64,000 nt of DNA from a virus (taxonomy: Duplodnaviria; Caudoviricetes). Location: positions 1 through 64,000 of IMG/VR virus record IMGVR_UViG_2634166464_000002; one strand, written 5' to 3'. How positions within the stretch are numbered: the stretch's first letter is position 1; each line of letters begins with the position of its first letter. Under the pieces are notes generated by a model. That model searched no databases, was not told where the DNA came from, and was given only the letters and a program-made list of their open reading frames with translations. The position numbers were made by a program, and so were the translations under genes. Positions 6,592 to 57,831 of this stretch are shown in pieces.

Positions 6592-6938
6592 AGAAGATAC
6601 TCATTGCGCTGGCGCTACTCGCTGCCGGCCCCGCCACCGCTGACTCCGTGACGCTCGACAGCGCAAACCTCGCCTGTGCGAATTACTCCGACGCGCGCAA
6701 GCTTTCGACGCTGGCAGGGGACGTCGAAGCGTTCGGGAAATTCATGCGCCAGAAGAAGAGAAGCGGCGACTGCAAGGAGATCCAATCCGGCGTCGAGCTT
6801 TTCCTCGACAAATACGTCGGTCACCTCCACTGCATCCGGCCCCGAGGCGAGATCGAGTGCTGGTGGGCGTCGCTCGGTGGGAGCGATGCCGAGAAGCTCC
6901 GCCACGAATGCCGCATGGCGGGCCGCTGCCCCCTCTAG
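6588..6938 (+). CDS. Secreted/periplasmic cysteine-rich protein
   Basis: Signal peptide 'MKKILIALALLAAGPATA'; six Cys in mature part. Confidence 0.7.
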   Translation: MKKILIALALLAAGPATADSVTLDSANLACANYSDARKLSTLAGDVEAFGKFMRQKKRSGDCKEIQSGVELFLDKYVGHLHCIRPRGEIECWWASLGGSDAEKLRHECRMAGRCPL

Positions 6939-6949
6939 GCCCGTCTCGC

Positions 6950-7183
6950 ATGAGCCTCATCCACAATGAGCGGGTCAAGCTTTCGGCCTCGGCGTTGAAC
7001 GGCGTCGGCGTCGCGATGATTGCCGCAGGCTTCGTGACGCCGCTTGTCGCCATGACCTTCGATGTGCCCGGTTCCGCTGCCAGAGGAGCCCTCGTCACGA
7101 CCCTGGCCGCGCTCGCTTGGCTTGTCGCCGGGGTCAGCCTACATTTGCTGGCGAGAAGGCTCCTCGGAGGGCTCCAAGAATGA
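6950..7183 (+). CDS. Small two-TM membrane protein
   Basis: 'MSLIHNERVKLSASALNGVGVA' followed by two hydrophobic helices; type common in alphaproteobacteria. Confidence 0.7.
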   Translation: MSLIHNERVKLSASALNGVGVAMIAAGFVTPLVAMTFDVPGSAARGALVTTLAALAWLVAGVSLHLLARRLLGGLQE

Positions 7184-7293
7184 CCGGAACGGATATCTAT
7201 CTGATGTTCCTCGGCCCAGTCCTCGGGTTGGTCGCCGGTCTGGTGATCTATGCCATTGCCCGCCGGCAGAGCCAGAAAACCCACACCCGATGA
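7180..7293 (+). CDS. Small single-TM peptide (37 aa)
   Basis: ATGA overlap; 'IYLMFLGPVLGLVAGLVIYAIA' then basic tail. Confidence 0.6.
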   Translation: MTGTDIYLMFLGPVLGLVAGLVIYAIARRQSQKTHTR

Positions 7294-7295
7294 GA

Positions 7296-8165
7296 CTAGG
7301 CCTGCTCGGCCCGGTGGAGGACCGCGTTCACCTCGCGCCCGAAAGCGTTGTCCTCCCCGATTCCCCAGTAGGCGCCGGCCCCATCCAGGGCCCGCTTGAA
7401 CATCGCAGCCACCACCCGCTCGTGCTCGCCGCCCTCCGTGGCGAGCTCCCTGTAGGTGCGCTGCAGGTAGATCACCTCTAACAACAGCCCGTGCATGTCC
7501 CGGCCGAGCCACTGGCGCAGGAAGTGGTCAGTGCGCTGGGCATCGAGGCGCGCATCCGACACGCCCGGGAGCGTGGAGGTGTCGACGCCTGGCTCATAGC
7601 GTGGCGCCGGAATCAGGCCGGCATGCACCTTGTGGAAGTGCTCCTCGAGCTTCGACCAGGTCAGGATGCGCGCATCCGTGCGATCGACCTGCCGCTTGAA
7701 GCACGAGTCGAAGTGACTGACGCTCGCGCGCAACGTCGGCCCCAGCGACGCCAGGTGGAACTGGCGCTGCCCGTTGGCGGTACGCGGATCCCAGTCGACA
7801 CCCGCCGCCGAGAAATGCTTGCGCCGTGACTCGATCTCGGCGCGCTGCAACCGCTGGCGCTTCTCGCGTTCCTTCTGCTGCTTCGGCGTCAGTGCTCTCG
7901 GCGCCGGCCGCGCCGCGGGAGCCCGCGCCTCGAGGGCTTCCCTGATCCGGAGGATCTTCGTCAGGCGCCGCACCTCCTTCTGCCACTGGCTCGCCAGCCG
8001 CTTGGCACGCTCGCCGAGCTCGTTCGCGCGCCGCTCCTTCTCGCCCTCGCCGCGGTTCTTGCAGCGGTCGGCCCTTGCGAAGTGGGCTTCCATCTGGCCG
8101 CGATAGCGCTCCACCCGCATCTGTGCCTGGGTGAGCCTCTCCGGGACGTCTCGGTGCTTGCCCAT
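7296..8165 (-). CDS. Putative late-gene activator/antiterminator (Q-position protein with C-terminal HTH)
   Basis: Last gene of early operon; C-terminal 'LLLEVIYLQRTYRELATEGG...VVAAMFKRALD..AYWG' resembles a sigma region 4-like HTH. Confidence 0.5.
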   Translation of the reverse strand: MGKHRDVPERLTQAQMRVERYRGQMEAHFARADRCKNRGEGEKERRANELGERAKRLASQWQKEVRRLTKILRIREALEARAPAARPAPRALTPKQQKEREKRQRLQRAEIESRRKHFSAAGVDWDPRTANGQRQFHLASLGPTLRASVSHFDSCFKRQVDRTDARILTWSKLEEHFHKVHAGLIPAPRYEPGVDTSTLPGVSDARLDAQRTDHFLRQWLGRDMHGLLLEVIYLQRTYRELATEGGEHERVVAAMFKRALDGAGAYWGIGEDNAFGREVNAVLHRAEQA

Positions 8166-8167
8166 GG

Positions 8168-9979
8168 TCAGCCCGTCAGTTCCGGCATGAAGACGTACCA
8201 TTCGCCCTCAGCCTCGCCGCGCGTCCAGTAGGCGATGCCCTCCCTCTGCAGAGTCAGCACTGCGGTCGAGAACTTCGTCTCGATCTGCTTCTCCGTGAAC
8301 CCGGGCCCGAGATCGTCGGCGAACTTGCTGCGCGCGATCTCCACGGGCACCAGGCGCGTGCTCTTCTTTAACCTGCGGTCCTCACGGCGCTGCCAATCGC
8401 TCGGGTTCACTGCATGCTGACTCGAGGTTGCGCTGCGGATTGCCCCGAGTGCAGCCGACACCTCGGGGTTGAACCGCTTCTGCTTCTCCTTCCGCTCCCG
8501 CTCGGGCAGCGGCTCGATCTCCCGCTCCCACGGCTCGTTGAGGAACTTCGTGACGTCCGCGTCGAACCCGAGCACGACGCTCGCTTCCGGACCATGCCGG
8601 TTTTTCCCGACGATCACCTCGGCGATGCCGCACGCTCGCTGCATCGCGCGCTCGTAGTTGAGCCGTGCCTCCGTGCCATCCGGAGGCGCCTTCATTTTCC
8701 GCAGGTAATACTCCTCGCGATACACGAACATCACGATGTCCGCGTCCTGCTCGATCGAGCCGGACTCGCGCAGATCGGCCAGCATCGGACGCTTGTCATC
8801 ACGCTCTTCGACCTTGCGGGACAGCTGCGAGAGCGCGATGACTGGTACCTCGAGTTCTTTGGCGAGCGCTTTGAGACCGGTGGTAATCTCGGTTACCTCC
8901 TGGACTCTGTTGTCGTTGGCTCTCGAGGATCCTTTCAACAGTTGCAGGTAGTCGACGATCAGCAACGAGAGACCTTTGCGCTTCTTCAAGGCTTTCGCTC
9001 GCAGACGCAAAGCCGCGATGCTCAGTTCCCCCGTCTGATCGATCTCGAGGGGCAGGCCACGGAGTTCCCTCTGTGCAAGGATGAAGCGCTCCATCTCCTC
9101 TTCGGTCGCAAAGCCCCTGCGCACCTTCCAGAGCGGCACGCCCGATTGCTCGGAGATAATCCGCTTGGTGAGCTGCTCGGATGACATCTCGAGAGAGTTA
9201 AAGCCCACCACACCGGTACGCTCGCCGGCATTCCGCTTTCCCTTCAGCATGCGTCCGACATTGAAAGCGATGTTCGTGGCGAGGGCCGTCTTTCCCATGC
9301 CGGGACGGCCCGCGAGGATGATGAGGTCGGTGTCCTGCAAGCCCCCGAGCGCATCGTCGAGGCGCGGCAGGCCTGTCGAGAGACCGACCAGCGCACCGCC
9401 GGCCTTGTAGGCCTCCTGGGCCGAGATGACAGCCCTGTCCGAGGCGGTATCGAAGGCTTCGAAATCCGAGTGCTCGCCAGGGTCGGCGCGCAGGTTCACG
9501 AGGCGGTCGACAGCCGCGTAGACCAGACTCTTGGAGGTCGCGGCGGGCGGCGCATTGTAGGCGACATCAAGCATGTCCTCGGCGACTGAGATCATCTGCC
9601 GCCTGACGTGCAGGTCGTTCAGGATCATCGCATACTCCCGCGCTTGCGAGGGCAGTGCGGCTTCCGACTGCAGGCGGAACAAATATTGCCCGAGCGTCAG
9701 TCCCCCGAGATCGACGTCGGCGAGGAATGACTTGAGCGTGATCGCGTTGGCCGTCTTGCCCTGCGCGAGAAGCGCGGACGTGACCTCAAAGATCTTGCGA
9801 TGCAAGTCTTCGAAAAAACACTCGGGCGTGAGGATGTCCGCGCACTTGCCATAAGCGTCGTTGTTGAGGAGGAGCGAGCCCAGCACCGCAGCCTCGACCT
9901 CGAGGTTGTGCGGCATCACGCGTTCTTCTGGCAGACCGAGAGCGGCCCTGGCTGTGCGTCGTTGTTCCCCCGCCATCAT
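8168..9979 (-). CDS. dnaB: Replicative DNA helicase DnaB with C-terminal extension
   Basis: 'PHNLEVEAAVLGSLL', Walker A 'AGRPGMGKT', 'SLEMS', 'IVDYLQL', 'LSQLSR', 'DLRESGSIEQDAD', 'KNRHG'; start set at ATG overlapping VUT stop. Confidence 0.95.
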   Translation of the reverse strand: MMAGEQRRTARAALGLPEERVMPHNLEVEAAVLGSLLLNNDAYGKCADILTPECFFEDLHRKIFEVTSALLAQGKTANAITLKSFLADVDLGGLTLGQYLFRLQSEAALPSQAREYAMILNDLHVRRQMISVAEDMLDVAYNAPPAATSKSLVYAAVDRLVNLRADPGEHSDFEAFDTASDRAVISAQEAYKAGGALVGLSTGLPRLDDALGGLQDTDLIILAGRPGMGKTALATNIAFNVGRMLKGKRNAGERTGVVGFNSLEMSSEQLTKRIISEQSGVPLWKVRRGFATEEEMERFILAQRELRGLPLEIDQTGELSIAALRLRAKALKKRKGLSLLIVDYLQLLKGSSRANDNRVQEVTEITTGLKALAKELEVPVIALSQLSRKVEERDDKRPMLADLRESGSIEQDADIVMFVYREEYYLRKMKAPPDGTEARLNYERAMQRACGIAEVIVGKNRHGPEASVVLGFDADVTKFLNEPWEREIEPLPERERKEKQKRFNPEVSAALGAIRSATSSQHAVNPSDWQRREDRRLKKSTRLVPVEIARSKFADDLGPGFTEKQIETKFSTAVLTLQREGIAYWTRGEAEGEWYVFMPELTG

Positions 9980-10500
9980 GCGGTCCTCGGCGCCGACGCC
10001 ATCTGGCGGATGATCAGGGCCGCGAGCAGCGACATCCAGACCTTTCCGATCGTCTGGCCGGCGAGGTAGGACAGGTCGCCAAAGGCGAGCCAGAGGAAGA
10101 CAAGCGAGTCGACCAGCGCGCCGACTGCGCCACTGGCGAAGACAGCCATGGCGGGGCGTAGGGGACGCAGGCGCCCATAGACCAACAGATCGACGGTCTC
10201 GGACACGAGAAACGCGGCAGCCGAGGCAAAGGCCAGGATCGGCGACGCCAGGATTCCCGACAGGGCGGCGCCGACCAGGATAGCGGCAAACGCCACACGG
10301 CTTCCGAAGAAGCGATGCACCAGGTCTCGCAGCACCAGGCCCAGCCCGATGATGAGAACCCCGCTCGGCGCCAGGATCCCGAAGCCGACCGGCACAACAC
10401 ACGGGCCCGCGGAGCAGTCGCCGACATTCTCGATGAACCAATTGCTCAGCGGTACCGTGAGCAGGAATGCGGCGAGGCTCGCATAGGCCAGCGCTTTCAT
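9976..10500 (-). CDS. VUT family (YhhQ-like) queuosine-precursor transporter
   Basis: Multi-TM; 'VPVGFGILAPSGV...LVLRDLVH', 'AFLVSETVDLLVY..LR', 'S..VGALVDSLVFLWLAFG...GQ.IGK'. Confidence 0.85.
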   Translation of the reverse strand: MKALAYASLAAFLLTVPLSNWFIENVGDCSAGPCVVPVGFGILAPSGVLIIGLGLVLRDLVHRFFGSRVAFAAILVGAALSGILASPILAFASAAAFLVSETVDLLVYGRLRPLRPAMAVFASGAVGALVDSLVFLWLAFGDLSYLAGQTIGKVWMSLLAALIIRQMASAPRTA

Positions 10501-11423
10501 TCGGCAGCCTCCTGAAGCAGCGGCAATGACATCTGCCAGTGGGTCTCGGTGAGATCAGCGACGGATTCGACCTCCTCGACGAAGGCCGCGGCCTCGCGCC
10601 AGTCGTTTGCTGAGCGAGGCTTGATGCCCCGGGACCGGAGGATCTCGCGCGCTTCCCGGGCCGTGAGCTTGCGCCCGAGTTCCTCCTCGAGCGCGACCCT
10701 CTCCTCGATCGCATGCTTGAACGCGTGCAGGCTCCACGCCATCGAGTCGGCCGAATAGAGCAGCGCCCGCACGCACGGGTCTTTCAAGGCCGTCTTCTTC
10801 AAGCCGAAGCCGTGCAATCGCAGATCGGGCCTAAACCCCTTGATGCCGGCGAGAATGTGGATGACGTCCGCTACAGAGCCATTGCGCTTGCAGACGCTTC
10901 CCACGCCCACCCACATGCTCGTTGTGAGGCGACACCCATACATCCGAATGTGACGCTGATAATCTTCCGGGTTGTATCCCTGCAGAACGGGGATCACCGC
11001 GAAAGGGATCCGCCCTTCGAACAGATCCTCGAGGGCGGCGAGCAATAGGTCATAGCGCTCGATCGTCAGTTGCTGGTGATGGCGCACCATCTCGGCGTGA
11101 CGCTTCGCCGTGAGATCCTTCTCGTCGACCTGCAAGAGCTTCGCGACGACGGAGCGCTCGCACATGTAGTCCTGGGCCGACGCCGCCACGATGCGGGCCG
11201 TCCCTTGCGTGTGCAGCTCCCACAGCCTGCGGGCATAAGCTTCGACCGGATGCGGGTATCCGCCGTGCTGGTCGAGCGTCGAGAACGCGCCCGAGTCGAT
11301 AAATACCTGGCGGGCGCCGAGCGGCTTGCGGCGCGTCATCAACCGGTGGATCGAGATGCACACGCGGTGGAACCGGTGCGCATCGCTCGGCTGATGGATC
11401 CCGACATAGAAGTCCACGCTCAT
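10497..11423 (-). CDS. DpdA-like (TGT-fold) DNA guanine transglycosylase for 7-deazaguanine insertion
   Basis: TGT-type motifs 'FIDSGAFS', 'QDYMCE', 'IPVLQG', 'VGVGSVCKR', 'LHGFGLK', 'SADSMAWS'. Confidence 0.8.
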   Translation of the reverse strand: MSVDFYVGIHQPSDAHRFHRVCISIHRLMTRRKPLGARQVFIDSGAFSTLDQHGGYPHPVEAYARRLWELHTQGTARIVAASAQDYMCERSVVAKLLQVDEKDLTAKRHAEMVRHHQQLTIERYDLLLAALEDLFEGRIPFAVIPVLQGYNPEDYQRHIRMYGCRLTTSMWVGVGSVCKRNGSVADVIHILAGIKGFRPDLRLHGFGLKKTALKDPCVRALLYSADSMAWSLHAFKHAIEERVALEEELGRKLTAREAREILRSRGIKPRSANDWREAAAFVEEVESVADLTETHWQMSLPLLQEAAE

Positions 11424-12010
11424 GCCGCGGCCTCGAACATGTCGAGCTCATCCCCGAAGGAATGCCAGCCGGGGCGCCTGGTGCGCGCAAAGACATCCGC
11501 GCGCCGCGTCAACTGCGTGCAGCGCTCGTCGACCATCTCGTAGAAGCTTTCAGGCTTCTGGGAGTGCTTCCGCCGGATGCCTTTGAACAGGCCCGGGAGC
11601 GCCGCATGCTTCGGCTCGCCGCGCGTGGCGACAATGACGGGCTCCGCCATAGACCGCACGCGGTAGCCCGTGCCGATCGCCGGCCTGCCCGACAGGAAGA
11701 TCTTCTCCCAGTAAAGCAGGGTCTTGTATTCGTAGCCCCAGGCTTTGACGCACTCGATCTGCTTGTCGAGGAGTGGCGCGGTCGCCCAACACAACAGCAG
11801 GCAGTCGGGATCGGCGAGATCTCCGATCGGAAAGCGCCAGAATATCTCTTCGACTGGGTAGCAGCGGTAGTGCTTCGATGCGCTTTTCTCGCCACCACGC
11901 TCGCTGCGGGTCCGAAAGCGCCAGGGCGGATCCGCGACCACAAGGGAGTAGTAGTGCGGGCGCAGATCCCCGAACTGCCATGCCTCGAGAGGCGCGAAGA
12001 GTCCCCTCAT
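11420..12010 (-). CDS. MT-A70 family N6-adenine methyltransferase
   Basis: 'VVADPPWRF', 'LLCWAT', 'WGYEYKT..YW.K', 'GTGYRVRS..E', 'HSQKPE', 'FART.RPGW..FG.E'. Confidence 0.9.
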   Translation of the reverse strand: MRGLFAPLEAWQFGDLRPHYYSLVVADPPWRFRTRSERGGEKSASKHYRCYPVEEIFWRFPIGDLADPDCLLLCWATAPLLDKQIECVKAWGYEYKTLLYWEKIFLSGRPAIGTGYRVRSMAEPVIVATRGEPKHAALPGLFKGIRRKHSQKPESFYEMVDERCTQLTRRADVFARTRRPGWHSFGDELDMFEAAA

Positions 12011-12951
12011 CCCCCGATGCCTCGGAGCCTGACGAGTTCCTTGTTGAGGAAGATCACGTCGATGCCGACGGATTGCAGGGTCGGCGTCGCCTCGATCAGC
12101 GCACGGTGAAACGCCGGGATGCTCGGCCAGCCGCCGTCGTCGGTGAGCGTGCGCAGCGAATAGGGATATCCGTCGTACGTGCGCTTCAGTGACCGCGCGA
12201 GTTGGCTCAGGATCTCGACCGCGCCCCGCGGGCCGTTGATCCGCACAGTCTCGGGACTGTCTGCAATCGGCTCAGGCGCAGGCTCTTCCGCGCGATCATT
12301 TTCGGCAGCTGTTTCGAGGGGGGCAGCCGGCGCCGGCTCGGGCTCCCCCGCGATCGATGCCAACCCCTCGCCCGTGTTGAACGCCGTGAAGCGCTGGCAC
12401 ACGATCTCCCGGATGGTGGCGGGAGTCTCGGGAGCCGCTGGCGGTTCGGGGTCAGGAGGAGTCCCCTCCCCGCCAGCGTCGCTCCCGGCCGACACGGCTT
12501 CAGTGGATTCGGGCTCATTCCCGACCTGCACCTGGCCAGTGCTTTCTTCCTCCGATTGCTGTTGGCTCGCCGACAAGCCTACCTCCACGCTCCGATCGGA
12601 GGCGTCTTTGCCCGGGGCGCGGCTCATCCGCCGGGAGGCGTGCGTGGAGGATCTGTCACGTTGGGAGATGGCGCGCGGATCGCCGGCCTCGCGGGCCTCA
12701 GCGATATGCGTGCGGACCCAACGATCACCGTGCCCGAAGCACTCTCCGATCTCCTCCTGGGAGAGATCGGTACGCGACCAGAGGACCAGTACCTCGTCGC
12801 GCAGGCTCAGCGTCGCCCGCGCAACATCGGGCTGCAGGTTGAGAAGCATTCCCATGCAGCCGGCGACACGGTTGTTGAGGTGCGCGAGCTCGCGCGAGAT
12901 GTCGACCAGTTCACCAATAACCTCGTCGCGTGCCGCGCGCTTACTCTTCAT
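12007..12951 (-). CDS. HTH-containing protein with disordered central linker
   Basis: 'LSQEEIGECFGHGDRWVRTHI' HTH, Pro/Glu/Ser-rich linker, possible C-terminal winged helix. Confidence 0.55.
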   Translation of the reverse strand: MKSKRAARDEVIGELVDISRELAHLNNRVAGCMGMLLNLQPDVARATLSLRDEVLVLWSRTDLSQEEIGECFGHGDRWVRTHIAEAREAGDPRAISQRDRSSTHASRRMSRAPGKDASDRSVEVGLSASQQQSEEESTGQVQVGNEPESTEAVSAGSDAGGEGTPPDPEPPAAPETPATIREIVCQRFTAFNTGEGLASIAGEPEPAPAAPLETAAENDRAEEPAPEPIADSPETVRINGPRGAVEILSQLARSLKRTYDGYPYSLRTLTDDGGWPSIPAFHRALIEATPTLQSVGIDVIFLNKELVRLRGIGG

Positions 12952-13168
12952 GATCGGACCCGTACCGTTTGGCGTAGGAGCGAGCCGCGAAGCGCAGTTC
13001 CGGAGACGCGCACATGCGGCAGTAGATCTTTCCGCGGTCACCCCACGACGGATTGGCGGGGTCACCGCAGTCGGAGCACAAAGGCTCCTGCGGAGGCGGA
13101 GGCGGCGGTTTCGCGGGCCGCGCTGCGGGCAGTGGCTCGAAGAAGTCCTTGCCCTTCAGCGCCATCAC
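12941..13168 (-). CDS. Small zinc-finger protein
   Basis: 'CSDCG...YCRMC' with poly-Pro. Confidence 0.55.
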   Translation of the reverse strand: MMALKGKDFFEPLPAARPAKPPPPPPQEPLCSDCGDPANPSWGDRGKIYCRMCASPELRFAARSYAKRYGSDHEE

Positions 13169-13773
13169 CCTGCCCCTGCGAGGCGAGCGACGCCGATCGG
13201 CACGCGCTGGCCGAACATGATCTCGTAGGGAGGCGTCCAGCGCCCGTGCGTGCGTTGCGCCCAGTGCCAGATCGCCACCGCATCAGCGCGGTTGTCGTCG
13301 GTGCAGTAGAACGGGAGGTAGCCCCATTCCTTGCAGCGGTTCAGGACAGCCTTCTTGGTGTCCCTGCGCTCGCCGGCATTCGCCTTGTCGATGAACTTCG
13401 CGCGGACGGTCGCGGGCCAGACCTTCTCGATCGGGATCCTTTCCTTCTGGGCCTTGAGGCGCAGCGTCGTGACGAGGGCGATCGGAAGCCATAGCTCCAG
13501 CGCCCCGCGGGGGCGCCCGTCCCGCGGCTTCGCGGTCGGGTTGAGCGGCGCCTCAAAGACGATCCTGTCGGGCCAATCCTCTTTCCACCCGAGACGATGG
13601 TCGAGGAACGTCTCGAGGTTCTCGCACATGTGCGCGATGTCCTCGTCGACATCCTCGTACTTGCGCTTGCGCAAGCTGACCGTCATCGAGTTCAGGCGCG
13701 ACAGGTCATCCTTGGGAGGACGACCCATCGCAACGCCTGTCTTGATCGAGAGATCAAACGCCCAGACGTTCAT
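13165..13773 (-). CDS. RuvC-like Holliday junction resolvase
   Basis: 'WAFDLSIKTGVA', 'IVFEAP', 'DDNRADAVAIW' acidic catalytic pattern. Confidence 0.8.
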   Translation of the reverse strand: MNVWAFDLSIKTGVAMGRPPKDDLSRLNSMTVSLRKRKYEDVDEDIAHMCENLETFLDHRLGWKEDWPDRIVFEAPLNPTAKPRDGRPRGALELWLPIALVTTLRLKAQKERIPIEKVWPATVRAKFIDKANAGERRDTKKAVLNRCKEWGYLPFYCTDDNRADAVAIWHWAQRTHGRWTPPYEIMFGQRVPIGVARLAGAG

Positions 13774-13782
13774 GGCGCGCGA

Positions 13783-14406
13783 TCAGTTCAGGATCGTGTA
13801 GCTGCCGTCTGCCTTCGCGGGCTTGCGCCGCTCGCGCCGCGGCGCAGCACTGTCGTCGTTCGACGCGAGCTGCGCGGAGACCTCGCGGATATGCGCGTCG
13901 CCTTTCGCGATCTCGGACCTCATGGACTCGCGAAACGACTCGACGCTGTCGGACGCCTCGGTCTTCTTGCGCCGGCCGCGGGCCCGCTTCTCAGCCTTGG
14001 CATCGACCTCCTCGGGAGCCGGCGCCAGGTGAGCATTGGCCTCGAATGCCTTCTCAGCCTCCTCGAGGGGCATGCCGCCGTTCGCGGGAGCGGGCTCGTC
14101 TTCCTCTTTCGCCTGCGCGGCCAGGTCACCGTAGTGGGAGTTCCGGCTCCACTTCTCGGCGCGCATGATGCCGACGTAAGCCTCGAGGTTGTCGAGGTAC
14201 TCTTCGCGTTTCAGTTCATCCATGCGGTCGAGCCGCTTGATGAGGTTGAAGACTCCGGTGTGGAGGTTGGAGTTTTCCTTGTGATGAAGGACGCGCTCGC
14301 CGTGCGCGCCCCTGATCTCCGCAATTTTGGAGACCACGTTGTTGCCTTCGTTGACCAGCGCGACGAGAACCTTGCTGGCAATCATCCTCTCTGACGTCTC
14401 ACCCAT
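13783..14406 (-). CDS. GapR (DUF2312)-like DNA-binding protein with acidic/basic tail
   Basis: 'HKENSNLHTGVFNLIKRLDRMDELKREEYLDNLEAYVGIM' parallels the GapR C-terminal helix pattern. Confidence 0.4.
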   Translation of the reverse strand: MGETSERMIASKVLVALVNEGNNVVSKIAEIRGAHGERVLHHKENSNLHTGVFNLIKRLDRMDELKREEYLDNLEAYVGIMRAEKWSRNSHYGDLAAQAKEEDEPAPANGGMPLEEAEKAFEANAHLAPAPEEVDAKAEKRARGRRKKTEASDSVESFRESMRSEIAKGDAHIREVSAQLASNDDSAAPRRERRKPAKADGSYTILN

Positions 14407-14494
14407 TACGCATTACTCCGGGGCGGTTAACGGTGCCGGTGCAGGCTCGACACCGGGGACTCTCCAGGCCTGCTCTGGAGTTTTCCGGGGACGC

Positions 14495-15067
14495 TTACGC
14501 CCTCGCGGCGCGCTTGGAGATCCAAGGCACCAGCGGTTCATTGTCGGGACACGACAGCGCGTCACCGCGCGCGAGCAGATCCTGGATGGCTTCGATCACG
14601 AGCCCGAGCCCTCTGTGCTGCTGAAGCAGGTACTCGAGATGCGCTCTCCACTCTGCGCGTGTGGCCTCCTGGGCCGGCACGAAGGAGATATCGCTGACGT
14701 TGCCATCGACCGGAACCGACAGGGCGGGCGGCAACCGTTCCGTCAGGTGCTTGCTCATTCCGGGGAGCACCAGCTGACGCTCCCCTTTATCCTTCACGGC
14801 TGCCCACGAGCTCGCGACCTTCGCGGCCATATCGTGCAGCGCGCGGGTGATCAGATCCTGCTCGAGCACCGCGACGAGGTCTGGATGCGCGTCGCTCACA
14901 AACGCGACGACGTCCGACACACGGGCGCGGCGTCCGTATTTGTAGAAGTTGCGATACTCGGTCTGCATCGCCTCGCGCAGCCTGGTGCGGGCCTCGCGCG
15001 GCGTGAGTTCGTCGTCGGTCTCGTTCTGAGACAGTGAGAGCGATGCGTTCTGCCGCTCAGGCTGCAT
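14495..15067 (-). CDS. Hypothetical protein
   Basis: GGAGG RBS, overlaps upstream gene. Confidence 0.65.
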   Translation of the reverse strand: MQPERQNASLSLSQNETDDELTPREARTRLREAMQTEYRNFYKYGRRARVSDVVAFVSDAHPDLVAVLEQDLITRALHDMAAKVASSWAAVKDKGERQLVLPGMSKHLTERLPPALSVPVDGNVSDISFVPAQEATRAEWRAHLEYLLQQHRGLGLVIEAIQDLLARGDALSCPDNEPLVPWISKRAARA

Positions 15068-15974
15068 TGCGACGCCTCCAGGCTTGCTCGAGATCGCGGA
15101 TGAAGGGTGCAAGACGGTCGATGAGCGGGCCGAAGACGATGTCGGAGTCAGGCGTCACGCAGTCGAGCGCTTCCTCGGGCGTCAGCCCAAGCCCCAGGAT
15201 GGCACGCATGCCGCCGCAGAGTTGCAGGTACAGATCGCCCTGGCGGCGCTCCTCGTCGGTTGCATCCGTGTGAAACTTGCCGTCCCGGCCGAGCGTCGGG
15301 TTGCCTGTCTCGGCAGCGATCTTCCGAGCATCCTGTTTGGTCGGGAGGCTCTTGCGGAACTCCACCACAGCGGCCTTGGCATCGCCGGCCTGCTTGATCA
15401 GCTCCGCCTGCTTCTCGGGCGCCTGCTTGGCGAATTCTGCGGCCGGCTTGATCGCGACCTTGCCCTCGTCGACAGCCGCCACGAGCTCCGGAGCGCCCTT
15501 GGCGACAACGGTCTTCGCGTTCTCGTAAGTCTTGCCGCTTCCGAGGCCGACCCGCTCGGCAACCAGGTCACGGGTATGCCCTTTCACAAACCCCGGAACC
15601 GGTTCCACGGTTTTCGTCGTCGGACGTCCCTGCCGTCCCTCGAGCTCTTTCTCGATCGCGCGAGCAAGCGCGACACGCTCGGAGACCGTGAACTCCTTGC
15701 GGGTTTCGTTCTCGTCGAACTCACCCTCGAGGATCGACTCGATGTCGAGCACCCGGGCAGGAATCGTCTCGCGCCCGAGATGCTTGAAGGCTTCGATGCG
15801 CCGCTCGCCGAAGATGAGCCTACGGTCCTGTGTGACACCAATCGGCTGCAGAAGCCCGAGACGCTCGATGCTCTCAGCGAGCAGCACGATGTCGCCGAGA
15901 TCTTTGCGAAAGCGCTCGCCGACCACGATGTCGGCGATCGGGAGTTCCTGGACGGGAGCCGATTGCGTAGCCAT
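15057..15974 (-). CDS. ParB/Srx N-terminal domain protein with HTH
   Basis: 'IVVGERFRKDLGDI..LAESIERLGLLQPIGV...LIFGERRIEA', 'ENETRKEFT', HTH 'TRDLVAERVGLGSGKTYE'. Confidence 0.85.
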   Translation of the reverse strand: MATQSAPVQELPIADIVVGERFRKDLGDIVLLAESIERLGLLQPIGVTQDRRLIFGERRIEAFKHLGRETIPARVLDIESILEGEFDENETRKEFTVSERVALARAIEKELEGRQGRPTTKTVEPVPGFVKGHTRDLVAERVGLGSGKTYENAKTVVAKGAPELVAAVDEGKVAIKPAAEFAKQAPEKQAELIKQAGDAKAAVVEFRKSLPTKQDARKIAAETGNPTLGRDGKFHTDATDEERRQGDLYLQLCGGMRAILGLGLTPEEALDCVTPDSDIVFGPLIDRLAPFIRDLEQAWRRRNAA

Positions 15975-15986
15975 CGCGTGCCTCCA

Positions 15987-16214
15987 TCACGCCGCGTCGG
16001 CGCGCATGGCAGCGATGTGCTCGCGCAGAAACGCCTCGAGGCGCTGGCCCTTTTCGATCGTGAAGTTTTCGCCGTCCCGCAGGCGCCGGATGAAACGCTT
16101 GTCGCCTCCAAACACTGCCCGTGAGATCCCGGGATCGCTGAGCCCGGTGAGGGCATGGACTTCGTCGGCGAGGCGGAGGAGTTCAGCGCGATAGGCGTCG
16201 GTGGCGGGTGTCAT
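15987..16214 (-). CDS. Cro-like repressor
   Basis: Small HTH 'GLSDPGISRAVFGGDKRFIRRLRDG', divergent from cI. Confidence 0.75.
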   Translation of the reverse strand: MTPATDAYRAELLRLADEVHALTGLSDPGISRAVFGGDKRFIRRLRDGENFTIEKGQRLEAFLREHIAAMRADAA

Positions 16215-16225
16215 GCCCTCCAAAG

Positions 16226-16318
16226 TGGAGAAGACTTTCCCCACCGTCAACCAGATTTTGGGGCACGACTCAGCCGATCGGACGATCCCTAGAGGAGGGT
16301 TGGGCTATAGATTCCCCA
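16226..16318. promoter_or_regulatory. OR region: two 18-bp operators (16226-16243, 16301-16318) and PR-like promoter
   Basis: TGGAGAA-GACT-TTCCCCA and TGGGCTA-TAGA-TTCCCCA; minus-strand TTGACG at 16250-16245 abuts the first operator. Confidence 0.7.
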
Positions 16319-16379
16319 CCCCGTTTCGGGTAGAACGGAAGACACGAATGGCAAGTGTGCAACCGGGCAGCAGGCGCAG

Positions 16380-17162
16380 ATGACCGACATCGTAAGGGAA
16401 CGGATCCGGCAGAGGTTAAATGATCTGGGGATCTCAGCGAACCGTGCCTCCGACAGCTCAGGCCTCGATAGATCAGTTCTTAATAAATTCCTAAGAGGCG
16501 CAGTCAAAGAGCTAAAGGATTCAAATCTAAGACTAATAGCCGAAGCATTAGATTGTGACGCAAGTTTTCTAAGAGGCGAGAGCGATGAACTCCGCCCACC
16601 AACTTGGGTTCGTAGTGTGCGTAGATTACCCAATAGCCTCGATGTTCCTATTGTTGGCGAGGCAGAAGCAGGGGCGTGGCATCCGTCGCATTGGTTCGAC
16701 GACGCGGACCTGGGGGTTATATTGTCTGGCTACAATCCAAACTACCGTGAGCACAAGCAGTATGGATTCGTGGTCCGTTGCGACTCGATGGACTTAGCCG
16801 GCCTCACCAAGGGCGATCAGGTAGTGTGCATCAATCCCTGGCTCGCTGAGGTCGCACTCGCGACGGGTGATTGGGTAGTCGTCGAAAGCCGCGACGCGAC
16901 CGGAAAGATCGAACTAAGCATCAAGGAATTCCGGATCACTTCTGAGGGCTTTGAGCTTGTGCCACATTCGACGAGCCGCAAGCACAGGCCCTACGTGCTC
17001 GAGCGCGATACCGACCTGCGTAAGGGTAGCATCCGGATCGTCGGCGTGATCATCAGCCACATAAAGCCGCGCCCAGCACTAAACTTCCAGCAGCACCACA
17101 GCGCCTCGAGTCCTACAGCGCGGGGCGAGTCCTCCGCGAGGTCAGCTAGGCTCATGGCCTGA
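16380..17162 (+). CDS. CI-like repressor (XRE HTH plus S24 autopeptidase)
   Basis: N-terminal HTH, Ala-Gly site 'GEAEAG', Ser in 'VRCDSM', Lys in 'SIKEF'. Confidence 0.9.
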   Translation: MTDIVRERIRQRLNDLGISANRASDSSGLDRSVLNKFLRGAVKELKDSNLRLIAEALDCDASFLRGESDELRPPTWVRSVRRLPNSLDVPIVGEAEAGAWHPSHWFDDADLGVILSGYNPNYREHKQYGFVVRCDSMDLAGLTKGDQVVCINPWLAEVALATGDWVVVESRDATGKIELSIKEFRITSEGFELVPHSTSRKHRPYVLERDTDLRKGSIRIVGVIISHIKPRPALNFQQHHSASSPTARGESSARSARLMA

Positions 17163-17559
17163 ATCCTTCGCGCGCGGATACACTAACCTGGTACCGGAGT
17201 AAGGATTCTTGTTTGAAGGAATGGGTGCCTAGTACGTCGATGTAGCGCTCTACGATTCAGGTACTAGCGCTACCTGGATACAGCGTAGTGGCTCACCCCG
17301 CGCGTGCGCGCGAGCTCCCCCCTACCCCCCAACCCGGCTTGTGTCGGGGAGGCCACACAGCCACAAGATGTTGTGGCTGCACGGAACGGCAACGCTCATT
17401 GTGCGTTGCACCGTCGCCAATCGGGGGATCTCCATGCCGAGCACGTTACCCGATTGAGGCCCCTCGCGCCCGCATGCAGGCCGAGGGGCTTTCCATTTGT
17501 GGCGCAGCAGCTCGCCGCAGGCAAGGCCGCGGGGCCCTGAATTTTGCCGCCCTCCCCGC

Positions 17560-17589
17560 TTGACGGGGAACGCTTGCCCCAAATACCCT
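17560..17589 (+). promoter_or_regulatory. PL-like promoter with 18-bp operator (17564-17581)
   Basis: TTGACG at 17560 overlapped by CGGGGAA-CGCT-TGCCCCA, the same 7-4-7 consensus as the OR sites. Confidence 0.7.
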
Positions 17590-17612
17590 AACGGAAAGTT
17601 TAGGGGGGTCAC

Positions 17613-17900
17613 ATGCGCGCTTCGACCAGAAGGGACGTTCCCATCCCGGCATCTACCCGCTCCAGCCCGACATCGCACCCGCTCTTTCAGGCGGTGATCC
17701 GAGAGATCGAGGACATGTGCGAGTGCAAGGGACGGCTCGCAGCAGCGAACCATTGCGAAGACATCTGGGACACCATTCAGGCACTCGCCGAGATCGCGCG
17801 CGAGCAGCCGTCGTGGTTTCGTGCGGAGCCCGAGGAACTGCAGGCGTTTGCTGACTGGCTGCGCCGTCGTGCAGGCGAGTTGCGCCGTTCGGTTGCATGA
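17613..17900 (+). CDS. Hypothetical protein, first gene of recombination operon
   Basis: ATG after G-rich RBS downstream of PL. Confidence 0.55.
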   Translation: MRASTRRDVPIPASTRSSPTSHPLFQAVIREIEDMCECKGRLAAANHCEDIWDTIQALAEIAREQPSWFRAEPEELQAFADWLRRRAGELRRSVA

Positions 17901-17901
17901 C

Positions 17902-18249
17902 ATGCCAACACTCGAGGTCGTCAATGCGGCCGAACCGGTCTCCACCGAGGCTGCGCTCGCCGAACTGCTCGCGAAGAGCGACGTCGATCTCGGTGATGAG
18001 CAGGCCGTGCTTGCCGTTCTCGCCGGCCATGGGATTCGGCCCTGGCAGGTCACCCTGCGTTCGCTCGGGCCCATTCTCGCCGAAGCGCACAATATCCGGA
18101 CCTGGAGCAAGATGATGCGCGCCATGGCGGCGCGGGCCCTGGTCCTGATCGCTCTCCTGCTCGGCACGATTGGTCTCATTTCGAGTCTCGCGTCGGGACC
18201 ACTCGCGGCCGAGCACGGAGCCCTCACGCTTCTCGACGGAGGCTGGTGA
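17902..18249 (+). CDS. Hypothetical membrane protein
   Basis: C-terminal hydrophobic helix. Confidence 0.55.
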   Translation: MPTLEVVNAAEPVSTEAALAELLAKSDVDLGDEQAVLAVLAGHGIRPWQVTLRSLGPILAEAHNIRTWSKMMRAMAARALVLIALLLGTIGLISSLASGPLAAEHGALTLLDGGW

Positions 18250-23586: not shown

Positions 23587-23986
23587 TGCAATCAGATCAC
23601 TGCACCCATTGAGATCACTGCGGTGATCTCGGTGACTGCCTTGACCGACAAGGCCTTAGTCACCGCAGCCAATCAGATCACTGCAGTGAAGTCGTGCTGT
23701 GATCTCGGTAACTGAGGTCAGGTAAGGGACTGCAGTCACCGACATGATGGCAGTGTCAGCTGTGACCTGAGCCAAGGCAGCCAAGGCAGCCAAGGCAGCC
23801 AAGTCAGTGGCCGCAGCCAATGGCGTGACTGCATTCAATGACGTCAATGAATTCATTGGCTTCAATCCGGTCATGCCAGCCACTGCGGTCACGGCAGTGA
23901 TGCCTTTACCTGATGTTAAGAACCTCATGGCATTGGTCGACCTCACCGCAGTAACGGCAAGGAGGTCGTTCATGGCAGTAATTCCG
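23587..23986. repeat. Degenerate 9-bp-period array (about 44 units), candidate centromere and par operator
   Basis: 32 units in one phase (23699-23986) and 12 in a phase shifted by 4 bp (23587-23694); best cores TGCATTCA-a-TGACGTCA-a-TGAATTCA-t-TGGCTTCA; includes (GCCAAGGCA)x3. Confidence 0.8.
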
Positions 23987-24661
23987 TTTGTTTCCAGCAA
24001 GGGCGGGGCCGGCAAATCGACCTCTGCCCTGATCCTCGCCACCCAGCTAGCCGCCCGTGGCAGCAAGGTGACGGTCCTCGACTGCGATCAGAACCAGCAC
24101 TGCGCTGAGTGGTACGCCGAGGCCAAGAACAAGAGCGTCGCAGTCGTGGGGGACATCACCTACAAGACCGTGGTCGAGGAGATCGAAAAGGCCCATCAGG
24201 TGTCCGACGTCGTGATCGTCGATCTGCAGGGTAGCCAGAACATGACCGCGTCCCGCGCGATCTCCCGCGCCACGATGGTATTGATTCCGCTCGGGGCTAC
24301 CCACCTGGACGCGAAGGAAGCCACGAAATCGGTCGGCCTCGTGCAGGACGAGGAGGTCGTGCTGCGGCGGGCCGTTCCCTACCGTGCTTTCTTCACAAAG
24401 TGCCGCCCGAAGCCCACGATCGAGGAACGGAAGATCAAGGACAACCTGTTGGGCCTCGGCGTTCCGATGCTCCAGACCCGTCTTCTGAGCCGCGTGGCTT
24501 ACGAGAACCTGTTCAGTTACGCAGTCTCGCTGTCGGACTATGCCGACCAAGGCGTCGGGGTCAGCGGCGTTGAGGAGGCGATCAGGAACGCGGACGAATT
24601 CGTGGACGACGTCGTGGCGGCGCTGAACGACCTCGACGGAGACGCGAGGGCCGCAGCATGA
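23972..24661 (+). CDS. parA: ParA Walker-type partition ATPase (type Ib, no N-terminal HTH)
   Basis: 'SSKGGAGKST', 'VLDCDQNQ', 'VIVDLQG'; AAGGAGG RBS before ATG 23972. Confidence 0.92.
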   Translation: MAVIPFVSSKGGAGKSTSALILATQLAARGSKVTVLDCDQNQHCAEWYAEAKNKSVAVVGDITYKTVVEEIEKAHQVSDVVIVDLQGSQNMTASRAISRATMVLIPLGATHLDAKEATKSVGLVQDEEVVLRRAVPYRAFFTKCRPKPTIEERKIKDNLLGLGVPMLQTRLLSRVAYENLFSYAVSLSDYADQGVGVSGVEEAIRNADEFVDDVVAALNDLDGDARAAA

Positions 24662-57255: not shown

Positions 57256-57468
57256 CTACTTGCTCTCAGCCGAGGGCCTCTTGCCGCGCTCGACGAAATA
57301 CTTGGTCGCGACCACGATCACGAACGCGCCGTAAGCGTCGTGCGCCAATCCCTGGAAGTAGTCTTCCCACTTCCACTCGGACGCGATCAGCCACGCGAAC
57401 ACGCTGATTCCGAGCCACATGCCGGCAAGCACAATCGAGAGGCTGTGCTCACGCAGCCATTTCACCAA
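57256..57468 (-). CDS. Small membrane protein
   Basis: 'WLREHSLSIVL' TM and 'VVATKYF.E.G...SAESK'. Confidence 0.6.
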   Translation of the reverse strand: MVKWLREHSLSIVLAGMWLGISVFAWLIASEWKWEDYFQGLAHDAYGAFVIVVATKYFVERGKRPSAESK

Positions 57469-57471
57469 GGC

Positions 57472-57831
57472 TCAGGCGCTCCGGGAGATCCGTCGCGCGA
57501 CCTCGAGGAGGTCGACACCCATCGCCACCGCAAATCGCTGAATGGCGAGAACCGCTTCCTCTTCCAGGTAGTGGATCTCCGTGGCCGGCGTGTTCGTGAC
57601 GACGTCCCGCAGCGTCGGCGACCATGGCAGCCCGAGCCAATAGGCGAGCAACGCATGGGTGAGATCGTGCTCGCGGTTCATAGCCTCGACACTCGAATAA
57701 CCGAGCCTCGCAGCGGTTTCGGCCTGGTCGGCGTGGCCGCTGTGACGGGCGTGCAGCTGCCGCCCATCCGGAAACGTCGTGACCGTATAGTCGTCCTGAA
57801 CTTCGACCGTGACGGCGCCGATCTGGAACAT
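57472..57831 (-). CDS. Hypothetical protein
   Basis: Coupled to portal; 'REHDLTHALLA' His-rich motif. Confidence 0.65.
   Translation of the reverse strand: MFQIGAVTVEVQDDYTVTTFPDGRQLHARHSGHADQAETAARLGYSSVEAMNREHDLTHALLAYWLGLPWSPTLRDVVTNTPATEIHYLEEEAVLAIQRFAVAMGVDLLEVARRISRSA

Follow-up and report, generated by a model that had tools for sequence, protein, structure and literature searches.

A DpdA-like transglycosylase gene coupled to short VUT and MT-A70 methyltransferase genes in a Microvirga phage element: a candidate salvage-dependent DNA modification cassette

Five open reading frames (ORFs) on the minus strand, each joined to the next by a 4-nt ATGA overlap, lie in the early replication block of a phage element from a Microvirga isolate. 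The stretch analysed (hereafter the window, whose coordinates are used throughout) is the first 64 kb of the 73,638-bp virus record IMGVR_UViG_2634166464_000002. In reading order, the chain consists of a 352-amino-acid (aa) ORF, an MT-A70 family DNA methyltransferase of 196 aa (11420-12010), a candidate DpdA-family DNA guanine transglycosylase of 308 aa (10497-11423), a short VUT/YhhQ-family membrane protein of 174 aa that is a candidate 7-deazaguanine precursor importer (9976-10500), and a 603-aa DnaB replicative helicase (8168-9979) that starts at the ATG of its overlap. Read off the sequence, the overlaps are at 12010-12007, 11423-11420, 10500-10497 and 9979-9976. A previous reading made from the letters alone (the sequence-only reading) had described the last four genes, and its layout, coordinates and three overlaps all proved correct; the overlap at 12010-12007 is additional. 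Runs of 4-nt overlaps are common in phage operons, and those found here point to tight co-transcription and likely to translational coupling, with no special functional link implied.

The DpdA-like protein scored 103.6 bits against PF23859 (cut-off 27) and matched phrog_1279 with an E-value of 3.1e-56, whereas the model for tRNA-guanine transglycosylases (TGTs), PF01702, gave no match at E <= 0.01. Its AlphaFold2 model had a mean predicted local distance difference test score (pLDDT) of 91.2. In a Foldseek comparison with the PDB, the top match was 7UI4, 'DNA preQ0 insertase DpdA' (E 6.5e-7, template modelling (TM) score 0.51 on the query), followed by bacterial, archaeal, and eukaryotic TGTs, with 202 matches at E <= 0.001. 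As modelled, the protein has a TGT-type TIM-barrel fold. This kinship was detected by the fold search alone, as neither phmmer nor a 25-sequence profile retrieved any solved TGT or DpdA chain at E <= 10. The six TGT-fold motifs named in the sequence-only reading are all present, namely DSGAF (residues 43-47), QDYMCE (84-89), PVLQG (145-149), GSVCKR (175-180), LHGFG (203-207), and SADS (224-227), and their key residues do not vary in an alignment of 25 homologues sharing about 50-70% identity; D43, D85, D226, and G173/G175 are likewise unchanged in all 25. The family profiles and the rank of 7UI4 support the DpdA assignment made in that reading.

The Salmonella Montevideo DpdA (7UI4; PMC10164549) is thus the best solved structural match, and it presents the same order of aspartates and Gly-rich loop. 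By order and similar spacing, and not by residue-level superposition, D43, D85, Q148-G149, G173/G175, and D226 would correspond to its D95, D130, H181-G182, G206-G207, and D256, to which the structure paper assigns, by demonstration or proposal, the roles of acid/base, base recognition, and nucleophile (PMC10164549). The Salmonella protein is longer (413 aa versus 308 aa), has no detectable sequence-level match to the window protein, requires the DpdB ATPase, and is encoded in a restriction-modification island. Among phage proteins, gp20 of Mycobacterium phage Orion shares 33% identity with the window DpdA over 242 aa (E 5e-28) and keeps all the motifs, which by sequence places the two in the same subfamily. 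The DpdA of phage Rosebush was considered as a close characterised relative and rejected, as the match reached only E 0.001 over 79 aa, and that of Escherichia phage CAjan is remote (hhalign 38.8%). Two insertions are also seen in this family: a helical one, roughly 35 residues long, that follows the nucleophile motif (residues ~238-272, window 10603-10710) and is found in 8 of the 25 homologues including the window protein, and one of about 13 residues at 98-112, which the window protein shares with 3 of the 25.

The VUT protein matched PF02592 at 43.1 bits (cut-off 27.2), residues 86-162 aligning to profile positions 65-143 of 152, and phrog_4899 (E 3.2e-33), a PHROG of unknown function; a crude hydropathy scan indicated four to five hydrophobic segments. 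It belongs to a family of short VUT proteins (~170-200 aa) with 2322 matches at E <= 0.001. With gp26 of Sinorhizobium phage phiLM21 it shares 55% identity, and it is homologous, judging by sequence, to the 'putative preQ0 transporter' gp41 of CAjan (159 aa; 36% identity over 95 aa; 1.9e-21 with the hidden Markov model (HMM) of the family), preQ0 being 7-cyano-7-deazaguanine. The gp41 gene belongs to the 7-deazaguanine cluster characterised in that phage.

To see which genes accompany these proteins, we sampled 80 viral loci recovered with a DpdA alignment, 80 viral loci recovered with a short-VUT alignment, and 80 genome loci recovered with the DpdA alignment; one of the latter is the element itself, leaving 79. 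An alignment was needed as the query, since a scan of viral contigs with the DpdA single sequence gave no relatives. A small same-strand gene lies directly upstream of the short VUT in 79 of the 80 VUT-derived viral loci; in the 80th, the VUT gene is at the contig end. The upstream gene belongs to a 226-aa family in 70 loci. This family matches phrog_887 'queuine tRNA-ribosyltransferase' (2e-39) and aligns with CAjan DpdA by hhalign at 92.4% (E 5e-7), with the DNGAF/DSGAF and DS motifs superimposed in the alignment, and with the window DpdA family at 4.7%. Its structural model (pLDDT 71.8) retrieved generic TIM barrels by Foldseek and nothing at E <= 0.001, so the connection to DpdA is drawn from phrog_887 and the alignment to CAjan DpdA. 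In nine further loci, the partner is a ~200-aa protein of the phrog_15826 family, of unknown function according to PHROG, with similar motifs and weak hhalign values (16.7% against the 226-aa family, 0.5% against the window DpdA family). No Pfam or NCBIfam model matched either partner family. Examples of such partners among loci L085-L164 are L121:7315-7995 and L107:7387-8001.

None of these 80 VUT loci carries a DpdA of the window type. The window, phiLM21, and one other locus (L008) pair the short VUT with this third type of DpdA. The short VUT of phages thus keeps close company with small DpdA-like proteins, a relationship that sequence comparison demonstrates for 70 of the loci. Such fidelity across partner families would be hard to explain if the two did not share a substrate, and we regard it as the best argument that VUT handles the substrate of these proteins. 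When the CAjan synthesis proteins were used as queries against the 160 viral loci, FolE, QueD, and QueE had no match and QueC had one, which makes the pair without synthesis genes the rule in this set.

The same holds for the element. When all six frames of the complete 73,638-bp record were searched with HMMs, there was no QueC, PTPS/QueD, GTP cyclohydrolase I (FolE), QueF, or DUF3109/DpdM. The absence of folE, queD, queE, and queC noted by the sequence-only reading for the window thus extends to the entire record, including the part where que genes might have lain outside the window. The host assembly (G001, 9.2 Mb, draft) encodes a TGT (517 bits), a QueF (107 bits), a chromosomal VUT, and two PTPS proteins, the gene for one of which adjoins FolE (loci L246-L264). 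QueC was not found in it, the best scores being 26 bits to PF06508 and 33 bits to TIGR00364 (cut-off 150), nor was QueE, for which the best score across three models was 31 against a cut-off of 300. As no more than 5 of the 26 Microvirga genomes examined yielded a QueC, its absence appears to be a trait of the lineage and not an assembly gap. From its gene content, the host looks like a preQ0 salvager and the genus like a lineage that salvages queuosine precursors. With no QueC or QueE in the host and no synthesis genes in the element, the deazaguanine base would have to be imported, and the retention of QueF, TGT, and VUT implies that the precursor is met in nature. The idea of salvage put forward from the sequence is in this way strengthened by the host.

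One ORF of the record was considered as a QueE and set aside. This 355-aa protein (G000 66774-67841, minus strand, outside the window; L001:1093-2160) resembles radical S-adenosylmethionine (SAM) enzymes, with a CxxxCxxC motif, a match to phrog_9298 'radical SAM domain protein' (3e-50), a faint match to MiaB, and 19.5 bits to PF04055, under the cut-off of 29.5. Because it falls into phrog_9298 and no NCBIfam QueE model matched it, we do not regard it as a QueE. In the host, a chromosomal member of the short-VUT family (L252; G001:C1 ~349.5-350.4 kb) scored 262 bits with the family HMM; it has no DpdA-like partner and is preceded by about 900 apparently non-coding bases.

A DpdA gene without synthesis genes is not new in itself. 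According to the 2019 survey of Hutinet et al., the largest of its groups, group 3, comprises 76 phages that encode DpdA and no synthesis genes; their precursor was proposed to be host preQ0 or to be taken up, and YhhQ homologues were found in some phages 'with no correlation' (PMC6884629). The element resembles these phages in having DpdA and lacking the genes for preQ0 and archaeosine (G+) synthesis. The pairing seen here is, by its gene content, of this already catalogued kind, a DpdA-only phage plus YhhQ, so the novelty that the sequence-only reading had claimed for the cassette does not hold. The element differs from group 3 in that VUT is translationally coupled to DpdA. Its Microvirga host, moreover, has retained QueF, TGT, and VUT and is without QueC and QueE; Mycobacterium is described in that survey as having none of these genes (PMC6884629). 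Two group 3 members were analysed there: Orion was unmodified, and Salmonella phage 7-11 contained 50 2'-deoxy-7-amido-7-deazaguanosines (dADG) per million nucleotides (PMC6884629).

The closest parallel among known phages is phiLM21 (NC_029046), which is likewise a temperate phage of an alphaproteobacterium. Its genes gp25-gp26-gp27...gp31, in one early rightward operon, encode a DpdA 46% identical to that of the window, immediately after it a 175-aa short VUT, and then a DNA methyltransferase and a DnaB-like helicase. The phiLM21 methylase is unrelated to MT-A70 and comes after rather than before the DpdA/VUT pair, three small ORFs separate it from DnaB, and phiLM21 has annotated prophage repressor and HNH genes, whereas the element has partition genes and no integrase. 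This phage is not named in the main texts of PMC6884629 and PMC10516641. CAjan (PMC7544227) also has dpdA and a short yhhQ (gp41) together among replication genes; unlike the element, it encodes its own FolE, QueD, QueE, and QueC and makes preQ0 itself. No other locus among those surveyed has all four genes in the window arrangement. The nearest arrangements are those of phiLM21 and of locus L031, which has MT-A70, DpdA, DnaB, and a 301-aa ORF without VUT. A DnaB homologue lies within 8 kb of the window-type DpdA in 11 of 80 viral and 6 of 79 genome loci.

The MT-A70 protein matched PF05063 at 83.8 bits (cut-off 23.9) and phrog_359 'DNA methyltransferase' with an E-value of 1.2e-52. Its DPPW motif occupies residues 27-30, and D27 and W30 are invariant in 9 of 9 aligned homologues. 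A canonical DPPW in an MT-A70 protein presumably fits an ordinary N6-adenine enzyme, and on sequence grounds this one is most likely an orphan N6-adenine DNA methylase. Two roles had been proposed for it in the sequence-only reading, a separate N6-methyladenine (m6A) mark or methylation of the amine of an inserted preQ1 (7-aminomethyl-7-deazaguanine); the former stands as the most likely, and the latter is unsupported. It is an inconstant neighbour of the window-type DpdA, found less than 8 kb away at 9 of the 80 viral loci and at none of the 79 genome loci. Nor would a methylated deazaguanine be undescribed, as that reading had it. DNA containing mdPreQ1 has been described before, and the enzyme responsible is DpdM, a metal-binding protein of the DUF3109 family that provides the only route to a methylated 7-deazaguanine in DNA described so far (PMC10516641); the element has no DUF3109, MT-A70 is not of that family, and an MT-A70 route as such would be new.

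Methylases do recur next to DpdA. When eight methylases were used as queries, 34 of the 159 other DpdA loci had a match within 8 kb and 12 had one within 1 kb, the latter made up of MT-A70 (5), N6_N4 (3), C5 (2), D12 (1), and the type of phiLM21 gp27 (1). Furthermore, among 21 long DpdA homologues, 12 carry a PF02086 D12-class N6-adenine methyltransferase domain (one of them also a C5 domain), one an N6_N4 domain (PF01555), and one a DNA polymerase A domain. The DpdA part is mostly N-terminal in these fusions but is C-terminal in P0258 and central in P0259, and at least one of the long proteins, P0242, resembles a gene-calling run-on. A nucleoside 2-deoxyribosyltransferase domain was seen as another fusion partner of DpdA; the fusion proteins are P0245-P0259, P0249, P0243, and P0021. 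No description of DpdA-methyltransferase fusions was found in the literature searched. Since these methylases are recurrent but interchangeable, and include C5 enzymes, they are best read as independent DNA modifications stacked in an early module.

We favour, with a probability of about 0.55, the reading that the DpdA/VUT/MT-A70 cassette of this early operon would place an imported 7-deazaguanine in the phage DNA, together with an independent m6A, and so shield it from restriction. In this scheme, DpdA would exchange guanines in the phage DNA for preQ0 or preQ1 after replication. The base would come from outside the cell, given that neither the element nor the host appears to make it, and during phage development the short VUT, translated together with DpdA, would step up its uptake and supply the enzyme. 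N6-methyladenine would be a separate mark, added by MT-A70, and the two marks together would protect the DNA as it replicates. Many restriction enzymes are blocked by the 7-deazaguanine modifications of phage DNA. Marking may be confined to lytic replication, as the position in the operon would suggest.

Several observations weigh against this reading. No member of the window DpdA subfamily has been demonstrated to modify DNA: Orion gp20, which belongs to it, comes from a phage with unmodified DNA, and the DpdAs of Rosebush and CAjan are remote. Orion DNA contained fewer than 6 deazaguanines per million nucleotides, which that study attributes to a missing precursor (PMC6884629), and this is the same starting condition as that of the Microvirga host. 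The VUT protein aligns to the C-terminal half of PF02592 only and falls under the NCBIfam equivalog cut-offs (42.4 versus 50.95 bits for TIGR00697 and 21.9 versus 252 for NF008406), for which reason we file it as a short VUT-family protein and not as a YhhQ equivalog. Deletion of yhhQ in CAjan left DNA modification unchanged (PMC7544227), so that no phage VUT has a demonstrated role. The window-type DpdA seldom has a VUT beside it (within 8 kb in 3 of 80 viral and 2 of 79 genome loci), and two VUT genes are already present in the host. Near the host VUT (L252 included), QueF, and TGT genes, a search with Rfam gave no preQ1 riboswitch at E <= 0.1. The assembly in which QueC and QueE were not found is, moreover, a draft. 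Finally, a promoter and terminator scan of 6800-18200 gave one promoter-like site, with 1.1 expected from the shuffled background, and no convincing minus-strand terminator; the timing of expression is accordingly read from gene order.

Part of this evidence would fit a DpdA/VUT pair that is mostly without measurable effect, the DNA being unmodified or modified in traces unless the environment supplies the base, or a different base being inserted, or the activity having been lost. We consider this possible but doubtful. Orion fits such an outcome, in that its DpdA is of the window subfamily, its host lacks the pathway, and its DNA was unmodified; the low dADG content of the DpdA-only phage 7-11 and the lack of QueC and QueE in the Microvirga host fit it as well. 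However, the invariance of the catalytic-motif residues over the 25 homologues argues for selection on activity, the element has its own candidate importer whereas Orion is absent from the 20 isolated-phage records matched by the window VUT, and the QueF, TGT, and VUT genes kept by the host speak for a precursor that is encountered in nature. It is also conceivable, though in our view unlikely, that the short VUT is not a deazaguanine importer, and instead handles another small molecule, works in export, or has a membrane role such as superinfection exclusion. Its scores under the equivalog cut-offs, the alignment of its C-terminal half alone, the unknown function of its PHROG family, the CAjan deletion without phenotype, and the host chromosomal member without a DpdA-like partner would all agree with this. 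What argues for the importer is the position of the short VUT directly downstream of a CAjan-DpdA relative in 70 of 80 viral loci, with nine more in which the upstream partner is of the phrog_15826 family, together with its pairing with a third DpdA type in the window, phiLM21, and L008.

The role of MT-A70 bears on two further proposals. In one, DpdA would insert preQ1 and MT-A70 would methylate its aminomethyl group, giving mdPreQ1 without DpdM. The ATGA overlap of the two genes, the MT-A70 genes within 1 kb of a window-type DpdA at 5 of 159 other loci, the fusions of DpdA to amino-methyltransferase domains in both orders (PF02086 in 12 and PF01555 in 1 of 21), the host QueF that could turn imported preQ0 into preQ1, and the lack of DUF3109/DpdM in the element are compatible with it, and DpdA together with MT-A70 was not found in the literature searched. 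The MT-A70 of the window is also 41% identical to an 'adenine methylase' encoded immediately upstream of dpdA in Rhizobium phage RHph_TM3_3_3. Nevertheless, the phage ranges of the two proteins differ: homologues of MT-A70 are present in 464 phage records, with Vibrio, Shiga toxin (Stx)-converting, and enterobacterial phages foremost, whereas 398 of the 406 phage records with a window-type DpdA are mycobacteriophages, and RHph_TM3_3_3 is the only phage with both among the matches listed. Moreover, the methylases near or fused to DpdA fall into five families, including C5-cytosine enzymes unable to act on an amine, phiLM21 has an unrelated methylase at the equivalent place, and the DPPW motif is that of an ordinary N6-adenine enzyme. 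We therefore hold this route to be very improbable. A broader proposal is that DpdA and amino-group DNA methyltransferases form functional pairs and are not chance neighbours, either through the marking of an adjacent adenine, giving a doubly modified site, or through methylation of inserted preQ1 without DpdM, with the strength of protection, in a host unable to produce preQ0, set by the environmental supply of base. This is a long shot, which we keep in view because of the D12 and N6_N4 fusions in both orders, the coupling of MT-A70 to DpdA in the element, and the adjacency of MT-A70 in a small clade of alphaproteobacterial phages. The import of a base and its insertion by DpdA, with m6A as an independent mark, remains the reading we prefer.

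The cassette is embedded in a co-directional block running from about 16250 down to 7296. The 352-aa ORF that heads the ATGA chain (12007-13065, minus strand) has no Pfam, PHROG, or NCBIfam match. Upstream of it, the block contains a RuvC-like Holliday junction resolvase (13165-13773, minus strand; phrog_159, 1.2e-13) and, near its head, a protein with a ParB N-terminal domain (15057-15974, minus strand; PF02195 28.3 bits, cut-off 26.3; phrog_12047, 1.6e-41). The profile of phrog_21315 matches both this ParB-like protein (profile positions 17-213) and MT-A70 (positions 239-409), which are thus a single fused protein elsewhere, and the ParB-like gene may for this reason be linked in function to the methylase and not to plasmid partition. 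At the other end, DnaB meets the equivalog cut-off of NF006606 (574.7 bits versus 540) and carries both the N- and C-terminal domains (PF00772 and PF03796); its C-terminal extension of about 120 aa (residues ~482-603, window 8168-8530) has no family match. The last gene of the block, a 301-aa ORF (7296-8201, minus strand) also without family match, overlaps the end of DnaB by 34 nt, and its homologues follow DnaB in loci L031 and L041/L174. Diverging from the block is a Cro/CI-type helix-turn-helix (HTH) regulator of 260 aa (16380-17162, plus strand; PF01381 HTH_3 28.1 bits, cut-off 23), a candidate repressor.

The virus record is an exact rotation (offset 16,175 bases, 0 mismatches) of a stand-alone contig of the Microvirga isolate, G001:C24, and the corresponding genome-collection locus (L166) is 100% identical across DpdA. 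The contig ends are joined at window 57463|57464, inside the head module, between the gene after the portal and the gene before the protease. The ORF at 57256-57468 begins across the join, the preceding ORF ends at 57472, 4 nt before that start, and the gene order of the head module is continuous across the joined ends, all of which fits a circular molecule. By these sequence features, the element is probably a complete circle, despite its linear class in IMG/VR and a CheckV completeness of 86%. Its virion genes encode terminase, portal, protease-like, capsid, and adaptor proteins, a 1944-aa tape measure, tail and fibre proteins, and an endolysin, and other genes encode RecT, an exonuclease, ParA, the ParB-like protein, and HTH regulators. 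The ParA-like partition ATPase (23807-24661, plus strand), indicative of plasmid-type maintenance, matched phrog_164 at 2.8e-26 and scored 108.7 bits to NF041546, under the cut-off of 180. Searches with family models found no tyrosine integrase (PF00589), serine recombinase (PF00239), or protelomerase (PF16684) in the element. We conclude from the gene content that it is most likely a temperate phage of siphovirus type, maintained as a circular plasmid by its Microvirga host. The suggestion of a temperate phage-plasmid made from the window is supported, short of proof, by ParA, the ParB-like protein, the divergent HTH_3 regulator, the lack of integrase, resolvase (serine recombinase), and protelomerase, and the stand-alone contig.

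From a biological perspective, phages with DpdA and no synthesis genes are the largest catalogued group and the least understood, one of those tested being unmodified and another barely modified. The functional reading of the cassette is a reasonable one, somewhat strengthened by the analysis of the host, with the activity of DpdA predicted from sequence and fold. Three points seem worth keeping from this work: the setting of obligate salvage, the pairing of VUT with its upstream gene, and the fusions of DpdA to methyltransferases. Of general reach is the rule that a short phage VUT is almost never found without a small upstream gene (79 of 80 loci), which is a DpdA relative in 70. The most interesting feature of the element, however, is the obligate salvage itself, as neither phage nor host appears able to make the base. 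Because both would lack QueC and QueE while the host has QueF, TGT, and VUT, the one variable left to the experimenter is the supply of preQ0 or preQ1 in the medium, and the element thus offers, in a cultured host isolate, a clean natural case on whether 'import and insert' works.

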